A stretch of 64,000 nucleotides of DNA from a bacterium (GCA_026709025.1 JAPOTT010000011.1:128-64127); one strand, 5' to 3'; shown: positions 52,943-64,000, counted from the first letter of the stretch. Program-made: numbers and translations. The notes: generated by a model from the sequence alone, not told the origin.

Positions 52943-53016
<74 letters not shown>

Positions 53017-53072
53017 CCCGCAGTGCTTGTCTCGTGTTTGTCCTTAGAGGGCATACGGGTATCCTGTCGGCT

Positions 53073-56106: not shown

Positions 56107-56254
56107 GCCCTTCTCAGCGCAGGACGAGGTTCTTGCCTTGCACCTCCACTAGAGCTTTCCTAAAATTGTCTCTTGCCAAACCTATTTTGGTCGGCTAGGT
56201 TGAGTTCATGCTTCCCCATTTAGTTTCATTCACTAGCACTAAGGGGAATCTCTT

Positions 56255-56833
56255 ATGGAATCAGTTTTAAGTTCGTCCATCGTGGGCGCATTCTTAGCCG
56301 TCCTGATCGGCTATGTGATCTACACAGTGCGCGACAAGTTCGACAAGGTGGATGCTCGCTTCGACAAGCTGGAAGCCATTCTCTTGAACCATGCAGAGCG
56401 CATATCTCGCATTGAGACCATTCTTGTTAGCCAAGAGAACCAGTTAGCAGCGATTGATGCCCGCTTCCAAGCGATTGATGTCCGCTTCCAAGCGATTGAT
56501 GTCCGCTTCCAAGCGATTGATGCCCACTTCCAAGCGATTGATGCCCGTTTTCAGGAGGTCAATGCTCATCTCGATAACATTGAGGCGACGCTCGCCGACC
56601 ATGGTGAGCGCCTTATTCGTATTGAGGTCACCCTGACGAATCACGATGCCCGCTTCGATACAATCGATGTCCGTTTGAATAAGGTGGAAGTCATTCTCTT
56701 TAATCATGCGGAGCGGTTAGCTCGCATTGAAGCGAAGCTAAATATCGTGCCTGTGGTTACTCCTGTCACCCCGCCCACCGAGTTCGTCGATCCCCCCGAA
56801 CCAGCCGCACTAACCCAAACCACCTCAAGCTAA
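56255..56833 (+). CDS. Small N-anchored coiled-coil protein, long variant (192 aa)
   Basis: Same N- and C-termini as 55819; extra 97 aa including the AID(A/V)RFQ heptad x5. Confidence 0.85.
   Translation: MESVLSSSIVGAFLAVLIGYVIYTVRDKFDKVDARFDKLEAILLNHAERISRIETILVSQENQLAAIDARFQAIDVRFQAIDVRFQAIDAHFQAIDARFQEVNAHLDNIEATLADHGERLIRIEVTLTNHDARFDTIDVRLNKVEVILFNHAERLARIEAKLNIVPVVTPVTPPTEFVDPPEPAALTQTTSS
56450..56554 (+). repeat. 21-bp coding tandem repeat x5
   Basis: gcgattgatg(c/t)ccgcttccaa units, each encoding exactly one heptad. Confidence 0.95.
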
Positions 56834-57284
56834 GCCCTTCTCACTAGCTCACTAGCCCCCCCTAGCGCCACACAACCCCGGCACCGGACAAACCCAGCCG
56901 TGCTGACCCGTCGTTAGACATCACGTCAACTTGCGCTTGTGTGTCTGCAGCTACGCACCTCTCATAACAAACATCTGCAACGGGTCGGTGGATGAGCACA
57001 TGGCCCGATCCTCAAGCTCACCTGGATCCTCAAGCTCGCACCACCCAAACCTGCAACCTCCCCAAACTGCCCTACCGCTAGTCCCATACATGTTGCCGCA
57101 CTACACCCTTGCTGCCTTCCAATGTGAGGGCTACAGATGCTAGTTTCAGTACCCTTGAGGACATCTTCCGTATGGCTACTCACACCCCTGCGGTGCCCCC
57201 TCAAAATTGGCCCCTAAATTTCTTCTCAAAAAAATTGTCTTACTGTGTTTGAAATTGGTGCCGCAACCTGCAAGACTTACCGAA

Positions 57285-57354: not shown

Positions 57355-57396
57355 CATCTGATATAGTTTCAACATCCAGGCCCGTCTGATAGAAAG

Positions 57397-60300
57397 TTGT
57401 CCATGATTATGCTTCACTCGGTTTGGTCCGGCGAAGAGAGTGCTAACGCTCGTCGGAAAGTCATGACCATGTTGGCAGTGCTGGCTTTGCTAGCAAGTGT
57501 CCTGATGTGGGCCACCCCCCAAGCAGCGGCGCAGAGTGGTAATGATGTGGTAGCTGTTACGGCTACTGTTAGTAGGTCATCAGATGACGCTAGTGCTACT
57601 GATGAGGTGACTGTTGAAGCGGGTCAGCGGGTTTATCTTGATGGAACGGCGACTCTTATTAACGGTGATGATCCTCCAGCTACTTCTTATAAGTGGGAGA
57701 TAGCCGATGGCCCTTATGATTGGTTGACTATTAATCAGGACGCAGAGACGTCCACAGATAATGATAGTGATATAGAAGCTAGTTTTTTGTTGCCTAATCA
57801 GAATTATGTTGATGGTGTAACTGGTAGTGACGATCAGAAGTATAAGATTCAGGTTACTTTGACTGCGACGCGTAATGGTTCTTCAGAGAGTGATACTGTG
57901 ACTATCACGATTGCTCGTCCGCCTGTTGCTGATATTACGGTTTTTGCTGGTTTGCCTGATTCGGCTTTTGCAGATGATGTGAATGCAACTTTTGAAGAAA
58001 TCTTTGGTGAGGATGCGATTATTGATGGGCCTGGTGAGAACGGTAACCGTGATAATGAGTGGGATATTCGTGAGAAGGCTTATCTCCGGTTGGATGGTTC
58101 TGGGAGTACTGTGCCTGGTGGGAAAGTAGATCGTTATCGGTGGGAACGGCTTTCGCCACCTAACCTGCCTACCGGTGTTACGCTTACTTCTGCTCCTATC
58201 ATTTCTGGTCCTTTAGCAGATACCGACATTAATCCTATTTTTGTGGCTGGTAATAACGATTTTACTGCTGAGGCTGCTTCTGGTACTTACACTATTCTTC
58301 CTGATCTAAATGCTGGCGAAATTTCTGTTAAGCGGTTGACTTTGATTTATCAGTTGTCTGTGCAGTCTGGAGGGGGTACGGCTAAGACTTCTCGGGTTCG
58401 TATTGTGGTGCATGATAGTCCTGCTGAAGCAGATCCGATTGGTGTGAGTGTTAGTTTGGCTGCGGGTAGTCAGGGAAGCGCTCCTCAGTCTACTTTGTCT
58501 GCTTTGAATGGTGGGGTTGAGAATCAGTATCTTGTGAGTGCTGGTTCGGTAGTTCAGTTCACTGTGACTGGTTTGTTGAATGAGAAACTTACTTGGACGG
58601 GTGCTACTGCGAGAGGTGATGTTGATCTATTGCCTCCTAATAATCCTGATGGTACTGATGATAGTGGTACTGCTACTCGTAGGGTTCCTTCTGGTGTGAC
58701 TGCTGGTACTACTTATGATGTGACTGTCACTGATGGTGATCGCACTACGACGGTTCAGTTGTTGGTTGGTGCTAATCAGGTGCCTACTGCTAGTCCGATT
58801 GCTGGTGTTAGTCTTGCCGAAGGTCAGACTTTGGATAGGATTTCTGCTGGTCAGTTTGATTTAGCTGTGTTGAGTGTGAATGATGGCGTGCAGTCAAATA
58901 GTAAGCCGATCACTTTGCGTGGTGTGGGTAACGATCCTGATGGTGGCGCGATAATTCAGGCTTGGACGTTGCGTCATGTGCCTGCTGACAGTGAGTCTGC
59001 TGTGTTGGGTGCGATTGATACTTGGCTTGACCCTGATGGTAATAATAAGTCAACAGCAGGAAATGGTGATGTAGCTGGAGTGGTTGGCCCTGTTCTGCTT
59101 CAGTTGTCAGCTGATGATCCAGCTGATCCTCTAGTTGAGTTGATTAATCCGATTGGTGATGGTGAGGTGTCTTTTGAGGTGCCCCAGGTTAGAGCAGATA
59201 CTGGGGTGTTCCTTACCTATTCGGTGGTTGATTCGGCGAATGTTCTTGCAGCTAGGGTGTTGTACCTGCGTATTGAAGCTGATGATGATAAGCCGGTGGC
59301 TAATGCTGGTACTGGTCAGCAGGTTGCTTCTGGTGCGTTTGTTCGTCTAGATGGTTCTGGTAGTGCTGATCCTGATCCTGGTGACAGTATTGCTGGTAGC
59401 CATAGTTGGACTTATGTTGGTGCCAATATGAGTCCTCTGCCTGATGCACGTAGGGCTTTGTCTGATGCGGAGATTGGCCAGTTAGACGGTTGGGTGCTCC
59501 GCCAGGTTACGACTGATAATCCTTTACCTGATGGGGATACTCGTAAAACCTTTAAGGATTCCGAAGGCAATGATTATGTTTACATTGTTGATGCTAAGGG
59601 TGATTTAGTTGCTAGCGAAGTTCCTGAAGGTGGGCATACAGGTAAATTGATGGAATCAGGTTCTGCTTACCCGTATTTCACTGCGCCTAAGTTAACTGGT
59701 TTCAATAATCTTGGTCTTACGTTCCATTTGACTGTTACTGATGGGCAAGGAACCACTACCGGGGATGATCCTACTGCTGATGATGATAAGTCAGATCCGT
59801 CTCCTGTGACTATTACTGTGGCTCGGGTTGCTAGTAATGAGTTTTATAGTGGTGTGATTACTGGCCCTGGTTTTTGTACTAATCTGGCGTTTGGTGGGCC
59901 GATGTTGTTTGCGCATGATGGTGATGGTGATGGTGTTGCGGAGACTTGTTCTTTGAACACTACTCGTCGTGCGACTATTGCCCGTCAGAATGCTTTGGAG
60001 GCTATCGCTGCGTTGAATCCAACTGCTTTGGATAATGCGATAGACGCTGAGTGTGGGAAACTTGTTGCTGGTAATGCTAGTTATGAGGGTGATGAGCCTG
60101 CTGATTTAGCTGGTGATGCTTGCGCTGATGCTAGTAACCCGGTTGCGGTTATTCCTGTGTTGAGTGGTGCGACTGCGTATGGGCCTACGGTTAATGGTCC
60201 TGCGTTTTGTTCTAACTTTAGCCTTGGCGGGCCGATCATGTATCCGTATGATTCTGATGGTGATGGTGTGTACGATATTTGTTCGTTGAACAGTACTCGC

Positions 60301-60714
60301 CGTGAAGCAGTAGCACGCCAAACAGCTCTAGCCATCTCCTTTGAGGTGTCGTTTAGTGCTGGTGATCAGACTCGTCACGATGAGTTGGTTGAGTTGCGTG
60401 AGCTTCAAGAACTAGGTGATGATCGAACTGACGATCAGGACACCCGGCATATTGATCTTATCACGAAGTATGAAGGCGGTTTTACCGATAGCACTGACGG
60501 TGCGTTAGATAGTGATGAGATCATTGCTTTGTCAGCAGAGATTGATAGTCTTGCTGCTGCTAAGTCTGCTGCTGCTCGTTATGCTAATGCTTTGGCTGCG
60601 GCGTGTCGTGCGTTGGCTGGTCAAGTCTTTGAGGGTGATAAGGCTGCTGATCTTGCAACAGATGAGTGTGTGCGGCCTACTACTTCTGGTATTGCGCTTC
60701 CGTCTGGTAGCTAA
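57397..60714 (+). CDS. Large secreted protein 2 (paralog of 53073)
   Basis: Signal peptide RRKVMTMLAVLALLASVLMWATPQAAA; KPVANAGTGQQVASGAFVRLDGSGSADPD PKD motif; two C-terminal 4-Cys domains; ends GIALPSGS. Confidence 0.85.
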   Translation: MSMIMLHSVWSGEESANARRKVMTMLAVLALLASVLMWATPQAAAQSGNDVVAVTATVSRSSDDASATDEVTVEAGQRVYLDGTATLINGDDPPATSYKWEIADGPYDWLTINQDAETSTDNDSDIEASFLLPNQNYVDGVTGSDDQKYKIQVTLTATRNGSSESDTVTITIARPPVADITVFAGLPDSAFADDVNATFEEIFGEDAIIDGPGENGNRDNEWDIREKAYLRLDGSGSTVPGGKVDRYRWERLSPPNLPTGVTLTSAPIISGPLADTDINPIFVAGNNDFTAEAASGTYTILPDLNAGEISVKRLTLIYQLSVQSGGGTAKTSRVRIVVHDSPAEADPIGVSVSLAAGSQGSAPQSTLSALNGGVENQYLVSAGSVVQFTVTGLLNEKLTWTGATARGDVDLLPPNNPDGTDDSGTATRRVPSGVTAGTTYDVTVTDGDRTTTVQLLVGANQVPTASPIAGVSLAEGQTLDRISAGQFDLAVLSVNDGVQSNSKPITLRGVGNDPDGGAIIQAWTLRHVPADSESAVLGAIDTWLDPDGNNKSTAGNGDVAGVVGPVLLQLSADDPADPLVELINPIGDGEVSFEVPQVRADTGVFLTYSVVDSANVLAARVLYLRIEADDDKPVANAGTGQQVASGAFVRLDGSGSADPDPGDSIAGSHSWTYVGANMSPLPDARRALSDAEIGQLDGWVLRQVTTDNPLPDGDTRKTFKDSEGNDYVYIVDAKGDLVASEVPEGGHTGKLMESGSAYPYFTAPKLTGFNNLGLTFHLTVTDGQGTTTGDDPTADDDKSDPSPVTITVARVASNEFYSGVITGPGFCTNLAFGGPMLFAHDGDGDGVAETCSLNTTRRATIARQNALEAIAALNPTALDNAIDAECGKLVAGNASYEGDEPADLAGDACADASNPVAVIPVLSGATAYGPTVNGPAFCSNFSLGGPIMYPYDSDGDGVYDICSLNSTRREAVARQTALAISFEVSFSAGDQTRHDELVELRELQELGDDRTDDQDTRHIDLITKYEGGFTDSTDGALDSDEIIALSAEIDSLAAAKSAAARYANALAAACRALAGQVFEGDKAADLATDECVRPTTSGIALPSGS
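59806..60046. repeat. 241-bp near-identical inverted block (partner 62743-62983) within the large paralogs
   Basis: Manual alignment found one synonymous mismatch (TTGAAT/TTAAAT). Confidence 0.85.
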
Positions 60715-60757
60715 CTTTTAGAGAGTTTCAGGTTTAGCCTGGACAACCCAAACCACC

Positions 60758-60792
60758 GGGGCCCGGCCCTCCCACAAGGGGGGCCGGGCCCC
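60758..60792 (+). terminator. GC-rich hairpin after large protein 2
   Basis: ggggcccggccctcc-cacaa-ggggggccgggcccc (15-bp stem), followed within about 15 nt by a long T-rich tract. Confidence 0.75.
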
Positions 60793-60875
60793 ACCGCGTT
60801 AACCGTTATTTCTTCTTTTAGTGTTCTTCTGCTTAGTTATTTGTTTTTATTATTTTTCAATATTTTCAACAAATT

Positions 60876-60908
60876 AGGGTTGCAAACCCTCCACGCACTT
60901 TGTATTGT
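60876..60908 (+). promoter_or_regulatory. Sigma-70 promoter of the small gene, with an AT-rich UP element and a palindrome over the -35 box (mirror copy 61947-61979)
   Basis: TTGCAA-17 nt-TATTGT, ATG 6 nt downstream (leaderless); AGGGTT-gca-AACCCT overlaps the -35 box. Confidence 0.6.
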
Positions 60909-60914
60909 TATCTC

Positions 60915-61349
60915 ATGACCGGTTTTGAACTAGCCCAGTTCATCGCAATCATGCTGTCGTTGATGGGCATTGTCTTACACCAACAAAGAAGTAACTGGTA
61001 CCAACAACGAAGCATCGACCAGCTCCGCTCCGATATGAACGCTGGTTTCGCTGAAGCCCGCGCCGACCGCCAAGCCATCCGCAACGAGATAAACCAACGC
61101 TTAGCCGAGGCCCGTAGAGAAACCACACAAGGGTTTTCCGATGCTCAGGCTGCATTAGACAAAGCCCGCACCGAAAGCCGCGATGGGCTAGATACCCTAC
61201 ACTCTGACACTAACAAGAGTTTCCAACAGGTGTGGGCCGAACTATACAAAATAGTTCAACGCTTAGTCCGCATAGAAAGCCGCCTAAAAATCGAACCACC
61301 CCCAGAAGACTCCACTCCACCCCCCGCTACTACTCCACCAACGCCATAA
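60915..61349 (+). CDS. Small N-anchored coiled-coil protein (144 aa)
   Basis: TM FIAIMLSLMGIVL, helical repeats, RLVRIESRLKI, Pro-rich tail. Confidence 0.8.
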   Translation: MTGFELAQFIAIMLSLMGIVLHQQRSNWYQQRSIDQLRSDMNAGFAEARADRQAIRNEINQRLAEARRETTQGFSDAQAALDKARTESRDGLDTLHSDTNKSFQQVWAELYKIVQRLVRIESRLKIEPPPEDSTPPPATTPPTP

Positions 61350-61475
61350 CCTCACCGATAGAATACGAACACTCCTAATCTAAAAAATTCACTCTCCACA
61401 AAATCACACTTTGGCCTACAGACCTTGCTCAGGTGAGTGTTGAGTTTGATACAAGTTGAGGGGTTAGGTTATGGT

Positions 61476-61940
61476 TTAGGATTGGTTTGATCCTTCGGAG
61501 GGTGGTCCAATTTTTAGGCGACTTTCAATGCGAATAAGGCGTTGAGCAACCTTGGATAGTGCAGCCCACACCTGTCGGAACCCCCGATTTGTTTCAACAC
61601 GATGCACTTCCATCGTATTACGGATTTCCGCAAAACAATTATTAGTTTCTTTACGAGCCTCATCGAAGCGCTGGTTAGTATCAGAGCGTAGGGTATCTAG
61701 CCCATCGCGACTTTCAGTGCGGGCTTTGTCTAAAGCAGCCTGGGCATTAGAAAAGCGTTGGTTTATCTCGTTGCGGATGGCTTGGCGGTCGGCGCGGGCT
61801 TCAGCGAAACCAGCGTTCATATCGGAGCGGAGCTGGTCGATGCTTCGTTGTTGGTACCAGTTACTTCTTTGTTGGTGTAAGACAATGCCCATCAACGACA
61901 GCATGATTGCGATGAACTGGGCTAGTTCAAAACCGGTCAT
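61476..61940 (-). CDS. Small N-anchored coiled-coil protein (154 aa), inverted paralog of 60915
   Basis: First 62 codons identical to 60915; RLIRIESRLKI. Confidence 0.8.
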   Translation of the reverse strand: MTGFELAQFIAIMLSLMGIVLHQQRSNWYQQRSIDQLRSDMNAGFAEARADRQAIRNEINQRFSNAQAALDKARTESRDGLDTLRSDTNQRFDEARKETNNCFAEIRNTMEVHRVETNRGFRQVWAALSKVAQRLIRIESRLKIGPPSEGSNQS

Positions 61941-62281
61941 GAGATAACAATACAAAGTGCGTGGAGGGTTTGCAACCCTAATTTGTTGAAAATATTGAAA
62001 AATAATAAAAACAAATAACTAAGCAGAAGAACACTAAAAGAAGAAATAACGGTTAACGCGGTGGGGCCCGGCCCCCCTTGTGGGAGGGCCGGGCCCCGGT
62101 GGTTTGGGTTGTCCAGGCTAAACCTGAAACTCTCTAAAAGTTAGCTACCAGACGGAAGCGCAATACCAGAAGTAGTAGGCCGCACACACTCATCTGTTGC
62201 AAGATCAGCAGCCTTATCACCCTCAAAGACTTGACCAGCCAACGCACGACACGCCGCAGCCAAAGCATTAGCATAACGAGC
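61753..62281. repeat. Right arm of the 529-bp inverted repeat
   Basis: Reverse complement of 60574-61102. Confidence 0.93.
62063..62097 (-). terminator. GC-rich hairpin after large protein 3 (copy of 60758-60792)
   Basis: Same 15-bp stem on the minus strand. Confidence 0.75.
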
Positions 62282-64000
62282 CGCATTAGCTGCAGCTATC
62301 GCTTCAAGCTCGCTAATCTCTTTAGCAACAGCAGCAGTCAGGTCGTCGCCAGTCAAAGCATTCCCATCACCATCATTGATAATAACTGGAGTGTCGTCAT
62401 GAGCCTTCAAATCAGCTAGCCTACCCATCTCTCTTGGTGTCAAAGCATCCTCAAAGGTGGCTAGAGCTGCTTGGCGTGCTACTGCTTCACGGCGAGTGCT
62501 GTTCAACGAACAAATATCGTACACACCATCACCATCAGAATCATGCGGATACATGATCGACCCACCAAGGCTCCGGTTAGTGCAAAACGCAGGACCAGTA
62601 ACCACAGGCCCATACTGAGTAGCACCACTCAACACAGGAATAACCGCAACCGGGTTACTAGCATCATCGCAAGCATCATTAGCTAAATCAACAGGCTCAT
62701 CACCATAACTAGCATTAGCAGCAACAAGGCGCTTGCACTCATCGTCTATCGCATTATCCAAAGCAGTTGGATTTAACGCAGCGATAGCCTCCAAAGCATT
62801 CTGACGGGCAATAGTCGCACGACGAGTAGTGTTCAAAGAACAAGTCTCCGCAACACCATCACCATCACCATCATGCGCAAACAACATCGGCCCACCAAAC
62901 GCCAGATTAGTACAAAAACCAGGGCCAGTAATCACACCACTATAAAACTCATTACTAGCAACCCGAGCCACAGTAATAGTCACATCAGCAGTAGCAAATT
63001 CTGCGACCCCATCATCAGACTCACCATCTTTCAACGCTACACCATTAATCTCAGAAGCACTGCTATCAGCACTATCTGTCACAGTGAGACGGAACTTGAG
63101 ACTAATGTTGTTAAAACTAGTCAACTTAGGAGCAGTAAAATATGGATAACGAGAAGCTACACCCTTCAAATGAGCTGGTGTGTTATCTTTGTTGTCTAGC
63201 AAATCACCAGCAGCGTTAACTATCCACACATAATGCTTACCAGCAGAATCTTGGAATCTCCCTGCCGCTGGATCATTATCTGTAGCCTCCCGCAGCACCC
63301 AACCATTCAGCTCCTTGATCTCCGCATCAGACAAAGCCCTACGAGCATCAGGAAGCGGACTCATAGTAGCACCAACATAAATCCAACTATGACTAGCAAT
63401 ACTATCATCAGGATCAGGATCAGCGCTAGCAGAACCATTCAGGCGGACACGCGAACCAGAAGCAACTTGCTGATTAGCACCAGCATTAGCTACCGGCTTA
63501 TCATCCTCGGCAGTGACATGAATGTACACAGGCTGTGCGGCAACAACATGAGCTGAATCCACAACAGAGTACAAAAGAATAAAACCAGTGTTCTCTCTTA
63601 CTTCTGGCACCTCAAAAGAAACCTCACCATCACCAAGCGGGTTAATAAGTGTCACCAAAGGATCAGACGGATCATCAAGCTCCCCTAAGCGATTATAAAA
63701 ACCAGCTATATCGCCAGCTTTAGTAAGATCAGGAGTATCACCTACTAAATCTTCAACATCTGAATTCAAATTGTTTGCATCATCACCAGCAAACTGCCGC
63801 AAAGTCCAAGCTTGAATTATCGCGCCACCATCAGGATCATTGCCTACACCACGCAAAGTGATTAAAGCGCCACCTTTTTGTTTTCCATCACGGACACTGA
63901 AAACAGGAATGCCTGGAATACTTGATGCAGAGTCAAGATTACTATCCCCAATGCTAGCAGAAATCCCACCAGCAGTAGGCGCTTGATTAGTGCCAACTAA
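62141..64000 (-). CDS. Large secreted protein 3 (paralog of 57397), 5'-truncated by the window edge
   Basis: Frame is open to 64000 (LVGTNQAPTAGG...ITLRGVGNDPDGGAIIQAWTLR); same PKD motif, two 4-Cys domains and identical C-terminus. Confidence 0.88.
   Translation of the reverse strand, partial: LVGTNQAPTAGGISASIGDSNLDSASSIPGIPVFSVRDGKQKGGALITLRGVGNDPDGGAIIQAWTLRQFAGDDANNLNSDVEDLVGDTPDLTKAGDIAGFYNRLGELDDPSDPLVTLINPLGDGEVSFEVPEVRENTGFILLYSVVDSAHVVAAQPVYIHVTAEDDKPVANAGANQQVASGSRVRLNGSASADPDPDDSIASHSWIYVGATMSPLPDARRALSDAEIKELNGWVLREATDNDPAAGRFQDSAGKHYVWIVNAAGDLLDNKDNTPAHLKGVASRYPYFTAPKLTSFNNISLKFRLTVTDSADSSASEINGVALKDGESDDGVAEFATADVTITVARVASNEFYSGVITGPGFCTNLAFGGPMLFAHDGDGDGVAETCSLNTTRRATIARQNALEAIAALNPTALDNAIDDECKRLVAANASYGDEPVDLANDACDDASNPVAVIPVLSGATQYGPVVTGPAFCTNRSLGGSIMYPHDSDGDGVYDICSLNSTRREAVARQAALATFEDALTPREMGRLADLKAHDDTPVIINDGDGNALTGDDLTAAVAKEISELEAIAAANAARYANALAAACRALAGQVFEGDKAADLATDECVRPTTSGIALPSGS

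Follow-up and report, generated by a model that had tools for sequence, protein, structure and literature searches.

Towards its end, the 64,000-nucleotide stretch of DNA analysed here (hereafter the window; GCA_026709025.1, JAPOTT010000011.1) carries a tail-to-tail inverted duplication of a two-gene module, each copy of which encodes a secreted PKD protein of ~1080 aa and a membrane-anchored coiled-coil protein of ~150 aa. We think it probable that the variation at this locus arises by homologous recombination, through both gene conversion and inversion, at conserved anchors of the duplicated surface module, and we regard it as a recombination-driven variable surface locus, not as a proven programmed switch. 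This reading is carried by the anatomy of the duplication, by identity tracts that are not random in length, and by alternative configurations of the locus in independent assemblies. The exchanges themselves would most plausibly be RecA-type and sporadic, not programmed; some of them are likely to have taken place within one genome and not between strains, and the selective driver may be surface variation, for example in phage or host recognition.

The window covers bases 128-64127 of the 65,486-nt contig C13 and stops 1359 nt short of the end of that contig; coordinates above 64000 are on the window scale, extended over the end of C13 and onto contig C14. The source is a short-read metagenome-assembled genome (MAG) of 2.2 Mb in 56 contigs, 96% complete. 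From the names of its relatives, and from the runs that hold the sequence, which are sponge metagenomes, the organism is a sponge symbiont of Candidatus (Ca.) Poriferisocius (Acidimicrobiia). Throughout, C denotes contigs of the source genome, G genomes of relatives, L comparison contigs and X contig sets from public runs. The comparison within the species of the window covers at least six independent assemblies. The comparison contigs are mostly from short-read assemblies, with L041 taken to be a long-read contig from its size and name only, and the X sets are k=31 Logan contigs, which cannot span repeats of 80-530 bp. A PacBio-filtered search of public runs found no run holding the locus, and a search for RNA runs likewise found none.

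Anatomy of the inverted module

The features of the locus, in order along the window, are the following.

57427-57535, plus strand: 5' anchor block of 109 nt, with a perfect inverted partner at 65305-65413, past the window end
57463-60714, plus strand: gene 2, 1083 aa from the ATG, a secreted protein with PKD-like repeats (open reading frame and Pfam K319L-like PKD match)
59805-60346, plus strand: middle anchor block (Cys-rich domains), 93.5% identical over 542 nt to its partner at 62449-62984
60347-60569, plus strand: variable C-terminal insert of gene 2, with no alignment to the gene 3 insert at 62286-62448
60570-61102, plus strand: arm A of the inner inverted repeat, 99.8% identical over 533 nt to 62285-61753
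60915-61349, plus strand: small gene A, 144 aa in translation, with an N-terminal transmembrane (TM) anchor, a coiled coil and a Pro-rich tail
60956-61022, plus strand: polymorphic TM-anchor patch of 67 bp, mirrored at 61833-61899; allele M on both window arms, allele V differing at 15 positions
61103-61752, no strand: spacer, containing the 3' halves (tails) of the two small genes, which have diverged
61476-61940, minus strand: small gene B, 154 aa in translation, a paralogue of small gene A
61753-62285, minus strand: arm B of the inner inverted repeat, partner of arm A
62141 to ~65377, minus strand: gene 3, 1078 aa, the large secreted paralogue, with its frame open to the contig end and its start on C14

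Genes 2 and 3 are 56% identical. The C-terminal part of gene 2 consists of two Cys-rich domains, the variable insert and a conserved tail of 47 aa, and the coiled coils of the small proteins have an apparent 11-residue repeat, read by eye. Arm A takes in the final 47 codons of gene 2, then a terminator hairpin with a 12-bp stem (60758-60792), the promoter region of the small gene and the first 63 codons of small gene A. Both regions upstream of the large genes are intergenic; a promoter consensus scan of them gave nothing informative, and the promoter and terminator scans as a whole yielded only the shared hairpin.

Three conserved anchors are interleaved with hypervariable stretches: a 109-bp block of 5' leader plus signal peptide, a Cys-domain block of ~240-540 bp, and a block of ~530 bp formed by the 3' end of the large gene, the terminator and the 5' half of the small gene. 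In the mechanism that we propose, non-reciprocal gene conversion would copy patches from one copy of the module to the other and so produce near-identical tracts, and a reciprocal crossover would invert the DNA between anchors. The outcome would be a population in which N-terminal bodies, C-terminal inserts, TM-anchor patches and coiled-coil tails are reassorted. Gene content would be kept throughout because the copies are inverted, so that a crossover inverts the intervening DNA instead of deleting it.

Identity tracts between the two copies

An initial annotation, made from the window, had described perfect inverted copies of 529 bp, and a recount agrees: 60574-61102 and 61753-62281 are exact reverse complements (0/529 mismatches), with one mismatch when the alignment is extended to 533 nt. 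Its outer block of 241 bp with a single mismatch was also recovered (59806-60046 against 62743-62983, 1/241 positions) and is nested in the 542-nt block of 93.5% identity. The remaining large-gene sequence alternates as it had been described, with stretches of 75-92% identity interspersed with unalignable ones, and the spacer does hold divergent 3' halves of two convergent small genes; these tails are homologous and differ by insertions or deletions of 11-aa units (a 74-nt block at 92% and an 89-nt block at 81% identity). In a global alignment of the two copies, which are 66% identical overall, there are perfect tracts 527, 210 and 109 nt long; in 2000 column shuffles no run exceeded 34 nt. 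Tracts so far above the shuffle maximum bear out the proposal that the mosaic identity stems from recombination between the inverted copies. The inner repeat occurs at only these two places in the 2.2-Mb genome.

The 5' anchor block comprises a 36-nt leader with a ribosome-binding site, the ATG at 57463, and the signal peptide MTMLAVLALLASVLMWATPQAAAQ with its cleavage site. It matches the end of C14 at 100% over 109 nt and the end of C13 over 55 nt (corresponding to 57481-57535), and the block at the C14 end therefore supplies the leader, start codon and signal peptide of gene 3. The join between C13 and C14 is confirmed by a 703,830-nt contig (L041/L044, flanks 97-100% identical), because this contig carries exactly the gene order of the join. 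Across species of the genus the 5' block is 72-85% conserved; within the species it is 100% identical in every assembly, and in L041, L042, L048 and L051 it is so despite differing flanks and gene bodies. Some contigs of X1 and X6 depart from the window at 57381, 46 nt upstream of the block, into unrelated sequence (AATCACCTGATATGATTTCAAGAGACAAGA...), which suggests a third context upstream of a paralogue start in these samples.

Rearranged configurations in other assemblies

The perfect identity of the 529-bp arms is not conserved within the species. The arms of L041 match at 97.9% over 235 nt and at 84.9% over 259 nt, and those of L042 at 93.5% over 1455 nt; in both, the 5' block stays 100% identical between copies over 109-111 nt. 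Arm A of L036 equals that of the window, and its arm B has 19 differences over 325 nt, 15 of them clustered at 61833-61899 in the segment coding for the TM anchor. These comparisons bear on an explanation in which purifying selection for protein or RNA function, with no recombination, would by itself account for the identical blocks. The blocks do cover the signal peptide, the Cys domains, the terminator, the promoter and the TM anchor, and the 5' block is conserved across species. However, the 0/529 differences include intergenic and synonymous sites and stand beside unalignable sequence, the same arms are 85-98% identical in other strains, and the block boundaries vary from strain to strain. 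Selection alone is already contradicted by this strain comparison, and we consider it highly improbable.

Exchange between the arms is most readily followed through the TM-anchor patch. The window has M on both A and B, L041 has V with the A tail and M with the B tail, and L036 has the reverse of L041, with M beside the A tail and V beside the B tail. L039 has V on arm A; in L060, V adjoins gene 2 and is followed by the B tail; X8 has V joined to the end of gene 2 and X3 has M joined to the gene 3 flank. Small proteins in all four combinations of patch (V or M) and tail (A or B) are seen across the assemblies. L060 is 100% identical to window gene 2 over 59106-60955 and then continues into V and the B tail (61749 down to 61400), not the A tail, and the spacer of L036, oriented by the TM patches, is flipped relative to that of L041. 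Both L060 and L036 would be the expected product of a crossover in the ~80 nt of identity that lie between patch and spacer. The suggestion that crossover in the inner repeat swaps the tails of the small genes was right to the extent that swapped tails occur in other samples, but identical arms, such as those of the window, would regenerate the same two proteins; the inner crossover has consequences because the real arms differ in the 67-bp TM patch.

The clearest inversion has its end-points in a third repeat, the 109-bp 5' block, one copy of which is beyond the window. Some 4.3 kb of L041, comprising the gene 2 body, small gene A and the spacer, recur at 99-100% identity in L042, where they are inverted beside the right flank, the flanks themselves being colinear. 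Through the 109-bp block, the left flank leads into gene 2 (g2; window and L041) or into allele gX (L042 and L051), and the right flank into gene 3 (g3; window and L041) or into allele g2H (L042, L046 and L048). The junctions of this whole-module inversion (~7.9 kb) fall exactly at the 109-bp block, and the inversion is seen in two studies: the right-flank junction is repeated in an NCBI MAG and in a second sample of the same study, and the left-flank junction in a different project. Both orientations of a segment, with unchanged flanks and with end-points in repeats, are seen for the whole module (L041 against L042) as well as for the spacer (L060 and L036 against L041 and L039), in each case between samples, and the end-points fall inside identical blocks of 80-530 bp.

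The large genes are chimeric in their own right. Gene 2 of L041, and no other, carries a patch of ~200 nt that is 95-96% identical to gene 3; both large genes of L042 have the gene-2 type of C-terminal insert (99-100%), and L041 gene 2 has a third type. Alleles of the large protein are 55-80% identical within the species, gene 2 being 77% identical to g2H and 67% to gX, and the flanks are 98-99% identical. Comparing the locus between strains, as the initial annotation had proposed, has brought to light swapped tails, converted C-terminal inserts and chimeric large-gene alleles.

Mosaics could also arise from recombination between strains only, with DNA of co-resident strains replacing cassettes by double crossover at the anchors. 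Several strains are present per sponge sample, as is seen from bubbles and variant contigs in the public runs, and the alleles g2M, g2H and gX differ by 23-45% in protein amid flanks that are 98-99% identical, which therefore points to import or to very old allelic lineages. The identity tracts, however, are shared by the two copies in a single genome; the patch resembling gene 3 in gene 2 of L041 agrees with the gene 3 region of L041 itself; and the inversion of the spacer and of the whole module between unchanged flanks is the product expected of crossover in an inverted repeat. We consider it quite unlikely that between-strain exchange produced the mosaics by itself.

Homologous recombination at the anchors of the duplication, which we favour, also has several points standing against it. 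All comparisons of configuration are between assemblies from different samples and none is within the population of one individual, and short-read assembly might in principle have made wrong joins at anchors that exceed k in length, such as the 204-nt identical outer arm. Allelic recombination from strain to strain could give many of the same mosaics with no exchange within a genome, and a conserved tyrosine recombinase adjoins the locus, which leaves room for a site-specific component.

Smaller changes accompany these rearrangements. In L037, L039 and one X1 contig, small gene B has lost its promoter and 5' half to a 278-nt deletion (61754-62031), which is flanked by short CAYTARAA-like microhomologies and leaves a promoterless B tail beside gene 3. 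At positions 1-79 of L037 and 1-56 of L039, the sequence before 60781, upstream of the shared hairpin, is unrelated to the 3' end of gene 2, so that small gene A is not always preceded by gene 2.

The perfect identity of the inner arms

Near-zero divergence between the arms had been taken as a sign of ongoing homogenisation. The recombination mosaic behind this idea is real, but the comparisons with L041, L042, L036 and X1 make the 529-bp perfection itself either specific to one strain or a product of assembly collapse. In the latter case, one true arm would have V and the other M in the 67-bp TM patch, besides a few single-base differences between them, the assembler having collapsed the patch as though it were a strain bubble, and the orientation of the spacer between the now identical arms would then be arbitrary. 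This explanation concerns one feature only and is compatible with recombination at the anchors, and the inverted duplication itself is real.

Several observations are in keeping with a collapse. The ends of C13 and C14 have 55-nt overlaps that are typical of a k=55 de Bruijn assembly, and an assembler with that k would treat a 67-bp patch with identical flanks as a strain bubble and collapse it. In X1, which holds most of the sequence, there is a bubble inside the arm, with M at a depth of 13.9 and V at 7.3, and the flanking repeat pieces (23.5) are as deep as the spacer (23.9), so that the repeat stands at ~1x and not 2x. The end of gene 2 in L060 is 100% identical to the window and yet runs into V and then the B tail, L036 has M and V on opposite arms, and M on both arms is found in the window and in no other assembly. 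Against this, arm B is spanned in full by one X3 contig, which reaches from 61753 into the gene 3 flank and shows one difference; that run has no other version of the arm. The depths of short k=31 contigs are also noisy, the runs hold several strains, and X1, though the best-matching run, may not be the sample from which the MAG came. On balance, we give genuine recent conversion a little better than an even chance of explaining the perfect arms of the window, and collapse a little less than one.

That the inverted repeat as a whole might be an assembly artefact was named in the initial annotation as one of the findings that would undo it. The duplication has proved real, from the gene order of L041 and from independent junctions, and it is the perfection of the arms that has come into doubt. 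A palindromic artefact at a contig end was rejected, since the flanks of the arms differ, all four junctions are present in independent runs and L041 (703 kb) has the same order. More generally, where inverted paralogues differ little internally, the assembly of a short-read MAG easily collapses the bubble and orients the spacer arbitrarily, and perfect inverted repeats in such MAGs need confirmation by long reads.

A tyrosine recombinase beside the locus

The initial annotation held that no invertase is encoded, and this is true inside the window, but a tyrosine recombinase gene lies 1.2 kb past gene 3 on the adjoining contig. Upstream of the gene 3 start, C14 carries genes for a nucleotidyltransferase and for this recombinase, followed by menC and menD. 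The recombinase corresponds to the C-terminal two-thirds of a P4-like integrase (Phage_int_M plus the catalytic domain) and is without the arm-binding domain of ~100 aa that its 71-74% identical orthologues in relatives keep. The source genome has recA; no serine recombinase is encoded in this 96%-complete genome.

The presence of this gene raises the prospect of programmed site-specific inversion, in which the truncated recombinase would serve as an invertase with the 109-bp 5' blocks, and perhaps further blocks, as its targets, and inversion would swap which large-protein body follows which upstream region, as in recombinase-driven shufflons. Its position 1.2 kb from one of the 5' blocks is in favour of such a role, it is the only one of the three tyrosine recombinases in the genome that is not Xer-like, and the loss of the arm-binding N-terminal domain leaves a layout of core-binding and catalytic domains. 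It is intact in four assemblies and is under purifying selection: each pair differs by 7-13 synonymous and 0-2 non-synonymous codon changes, against 6-9 synonymous and 4-8 non-synonymous ones for the neighbouring nucleotidyltransferase gene, which has a frameshift in one sample. Orthologues of 71-74% identity lie directly upstream of an inverted paralogue, in the same direction, in three other species, a fourth (80%) is on the same contig as a paralogue in G002, and the 5' block, inside which the inversion end-points fall, is 100% identical in every assembly.

On the other side, an orthologue is present in only 7 of the 31 genus genomes, and several species with paralogue clusters have none nearby. 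In two species, the orthologue is beside large genes that are unmatched by gene 2 (G003) or were not compared with gene 2 (G044), and the integrase loci of G044 and G003 have no synteny with the paralogue cluster. By family, the enzyme is a P4-like island integrase, and neither a tRNA gene nor an attachment repeat was found next to it. Long identical blocks are a signature of homologous recombination and not of short core sites, the inner-arm exchanges and patches require no site, and the differences in orientation are seen between samples, not within one. Programmed inversion by this enzyme therefore seems unlikely to us. A site-specific role of some kind is possible at a similarly low probability, and nothing observed requires it.

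A more elaborate arrangement would work at two levels, with the recombinase, domesticated and without its arm domain, inverting the 7.9-kb module at the invariant 109-bp blocks and the nested 3' repeats independently reshuffling TM anchors and tails in the partner proteins. We hold this to be doubtful; if true, it would be a shufflon-like device for antigenic variation in Acidimicrobiia, in which the upstream region switches between adhesin-like bodies. The terms shufflon and recombinase-free, both of which had been applied to the locus, are unproven.

Two other identities for an invertible or mobile element were considered and rejected. A phage tail-fibre invertible segment of the Gin/Cin type does not agree with the chromosomal housekeeping context, the genus-specific PKD-type proteins or the want of a serine invertase. 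For an island integrated at a tRNA gene, the tRNA-Pro gene (52943-53018) lies at the opposite border and its 3' end is not repeated elsewhere in the window or on C14; no tRNA gene was found near the orthologous integrases in relatives.

The nucleotidyltransferase between the recombinase and gene 3 (G000:C14:62427-63407; 3431-4408 of L035, minus strand) is a 323-aa protein with an MntA-like N-terminus and a long helical C-terminal part. It has a 69% identical paralogue on C46, is split by a frameshift in L048, and has a high ratio of non-synonymous to synonymous changes between strains. In G017, a 100-nt direct repeat of 98% identity (L016, 4098-4197 and 5627-5726) duplicates the 3' end of the orthologous integrase; the two repeats bracket a gene for a 437-aa AAA/STAND-like ATPase, which seems to have been inserted between the integrase gene and that of the large paralogue.

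Distribution of the protein family and neighbouring genes

The large-protein family is specific to the genus, being present in 24 of the 24 genus genomes searched and in none of 16 outside it, and other members of the genus have convergent paralogue pairs with 5' blocks that are 94-96% identical. A full-length relative of gene 2 (39% identity) is also found on L030 (VXOZ01000335.1), a 6.1-kb contig of very high coverage binned as 'Chloroflexi bacterium'; as all other members of the family belong to the Poriferisocius genus, the contig was probably assigned to the wrong bin. Small gene A has an exact copy in two other assemblies, exact look-ups of small gene B and gene 2 gave no match outside the source genome, and a PDB sequence search with gene 2 gave no match.

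The context of the locus in the window is one of bacterial chromosomal housekeeping genes. An archaeal origin, raised by a DUF7310 match, was rejected, as the neighbouring genes are bacterial and the relatives are named Acidimicrobiia or Ca. Poriferisocius. Upstream of the duplication, at 56111-56948, a second tandem small gene that follows gene 1 (192 aa, 56255-56833) is missing in L042 and in L051, L052, L053, L054, L055 and L056, and is present in L041 at another length (185 aa), so this coiled-coil gene is polymorphic in both presence and length.

Significance and comparison with known systems

Sva0996/Poriferisocius sponge symbionts are uncultivated and little is known of their cell-surface variation. 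The locus is the most variable stretch that we have seen in a chromosomal neighbourhood otherwise 98-99% identical, and its inverted layout of anchors and cassettes offers a concrete mechanism for this variability, with modules reassorted and no gene lost. Should the variation follow phage pressure or host recognition, the locus would be of use for marking strains and as a way into the specificity between symbiont and host or symbiont and phage.

The sap locus of Campylobacter fetus undergoes RecA-dependent inversion between oppositely oriented paralogues for S-layer proteins, with no need of a dedicated invertase. As in sap, the locus described here has oppositely oriented surface paralogues with an identical 5' region, and a crossover in that region changes the body behind a given upstream region. 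The sap genes, however, stand head to head around one invertible segment that bears the promoter, with ~600 bp of 5' identity, whereas the genes here are tail to tail, with promoters outside the invertible segment, 109 bp of 5' identity and two further levels of anchor. A single active promoter, dependence on RecA and switching in culture are traits of sap, and the present locus is known from its sequence only.

Recombinase-driven shufflons include R64 with Rci, the pneumococcal hsdS locus (ivr) and inversions of the SusC/D type in Bacteroides with adjacent tyrosine recombinases. Inverted copies of gene segments, exchanges that lead to chimeric proteins and a tyrosine recombinase beside the locus are features in common, and the inverted repeats of hsdS loci reach hundreds of bp, as they do here. 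Unlike in shufflons, short conserved crossover sites were not identified (core sites were not searched for systematically), and the recombinase, a truncated P4-like integrase, is missing from most of the species that have the gene family. Shufflons also give mixed orientations within a population, whereas the orientations here were compared between samples.

Inverted duplicates may also evolve in concert, as tufA and tufB do in Salmonella and as large palindromes do by conversion from arm to arm. The near-identical tracts produced by gene conversion and the occasional inversion between copies are similar, but in those cases whole genes are homogenised and conserved, whereas here homogenisation is confined to the anchors and the segments between them are among the most variable of the species.

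In the cassette systems for antigenic variation (Neisseria pilE/pilS, Borrelia vlsE and Treponema tprK), as in the present locus, segments are transferred non-reciprocally between paralogues and conserved flanking blocks guide the transfer. Those systems have many silent, promoterless cassettes that feed one expression site, unlike the locus described here, where both copies are complete genes, each equipped with an upstream region of its own, a start codon and a signal peptide; only small gene B, in the samples where its 5' half is deleted, resembles a cassette. Taking these comparisons together, we place the locus with recombination-driven variation of inverted paralogous surface-protein genes, here in an uncultivated sponge symbiont.

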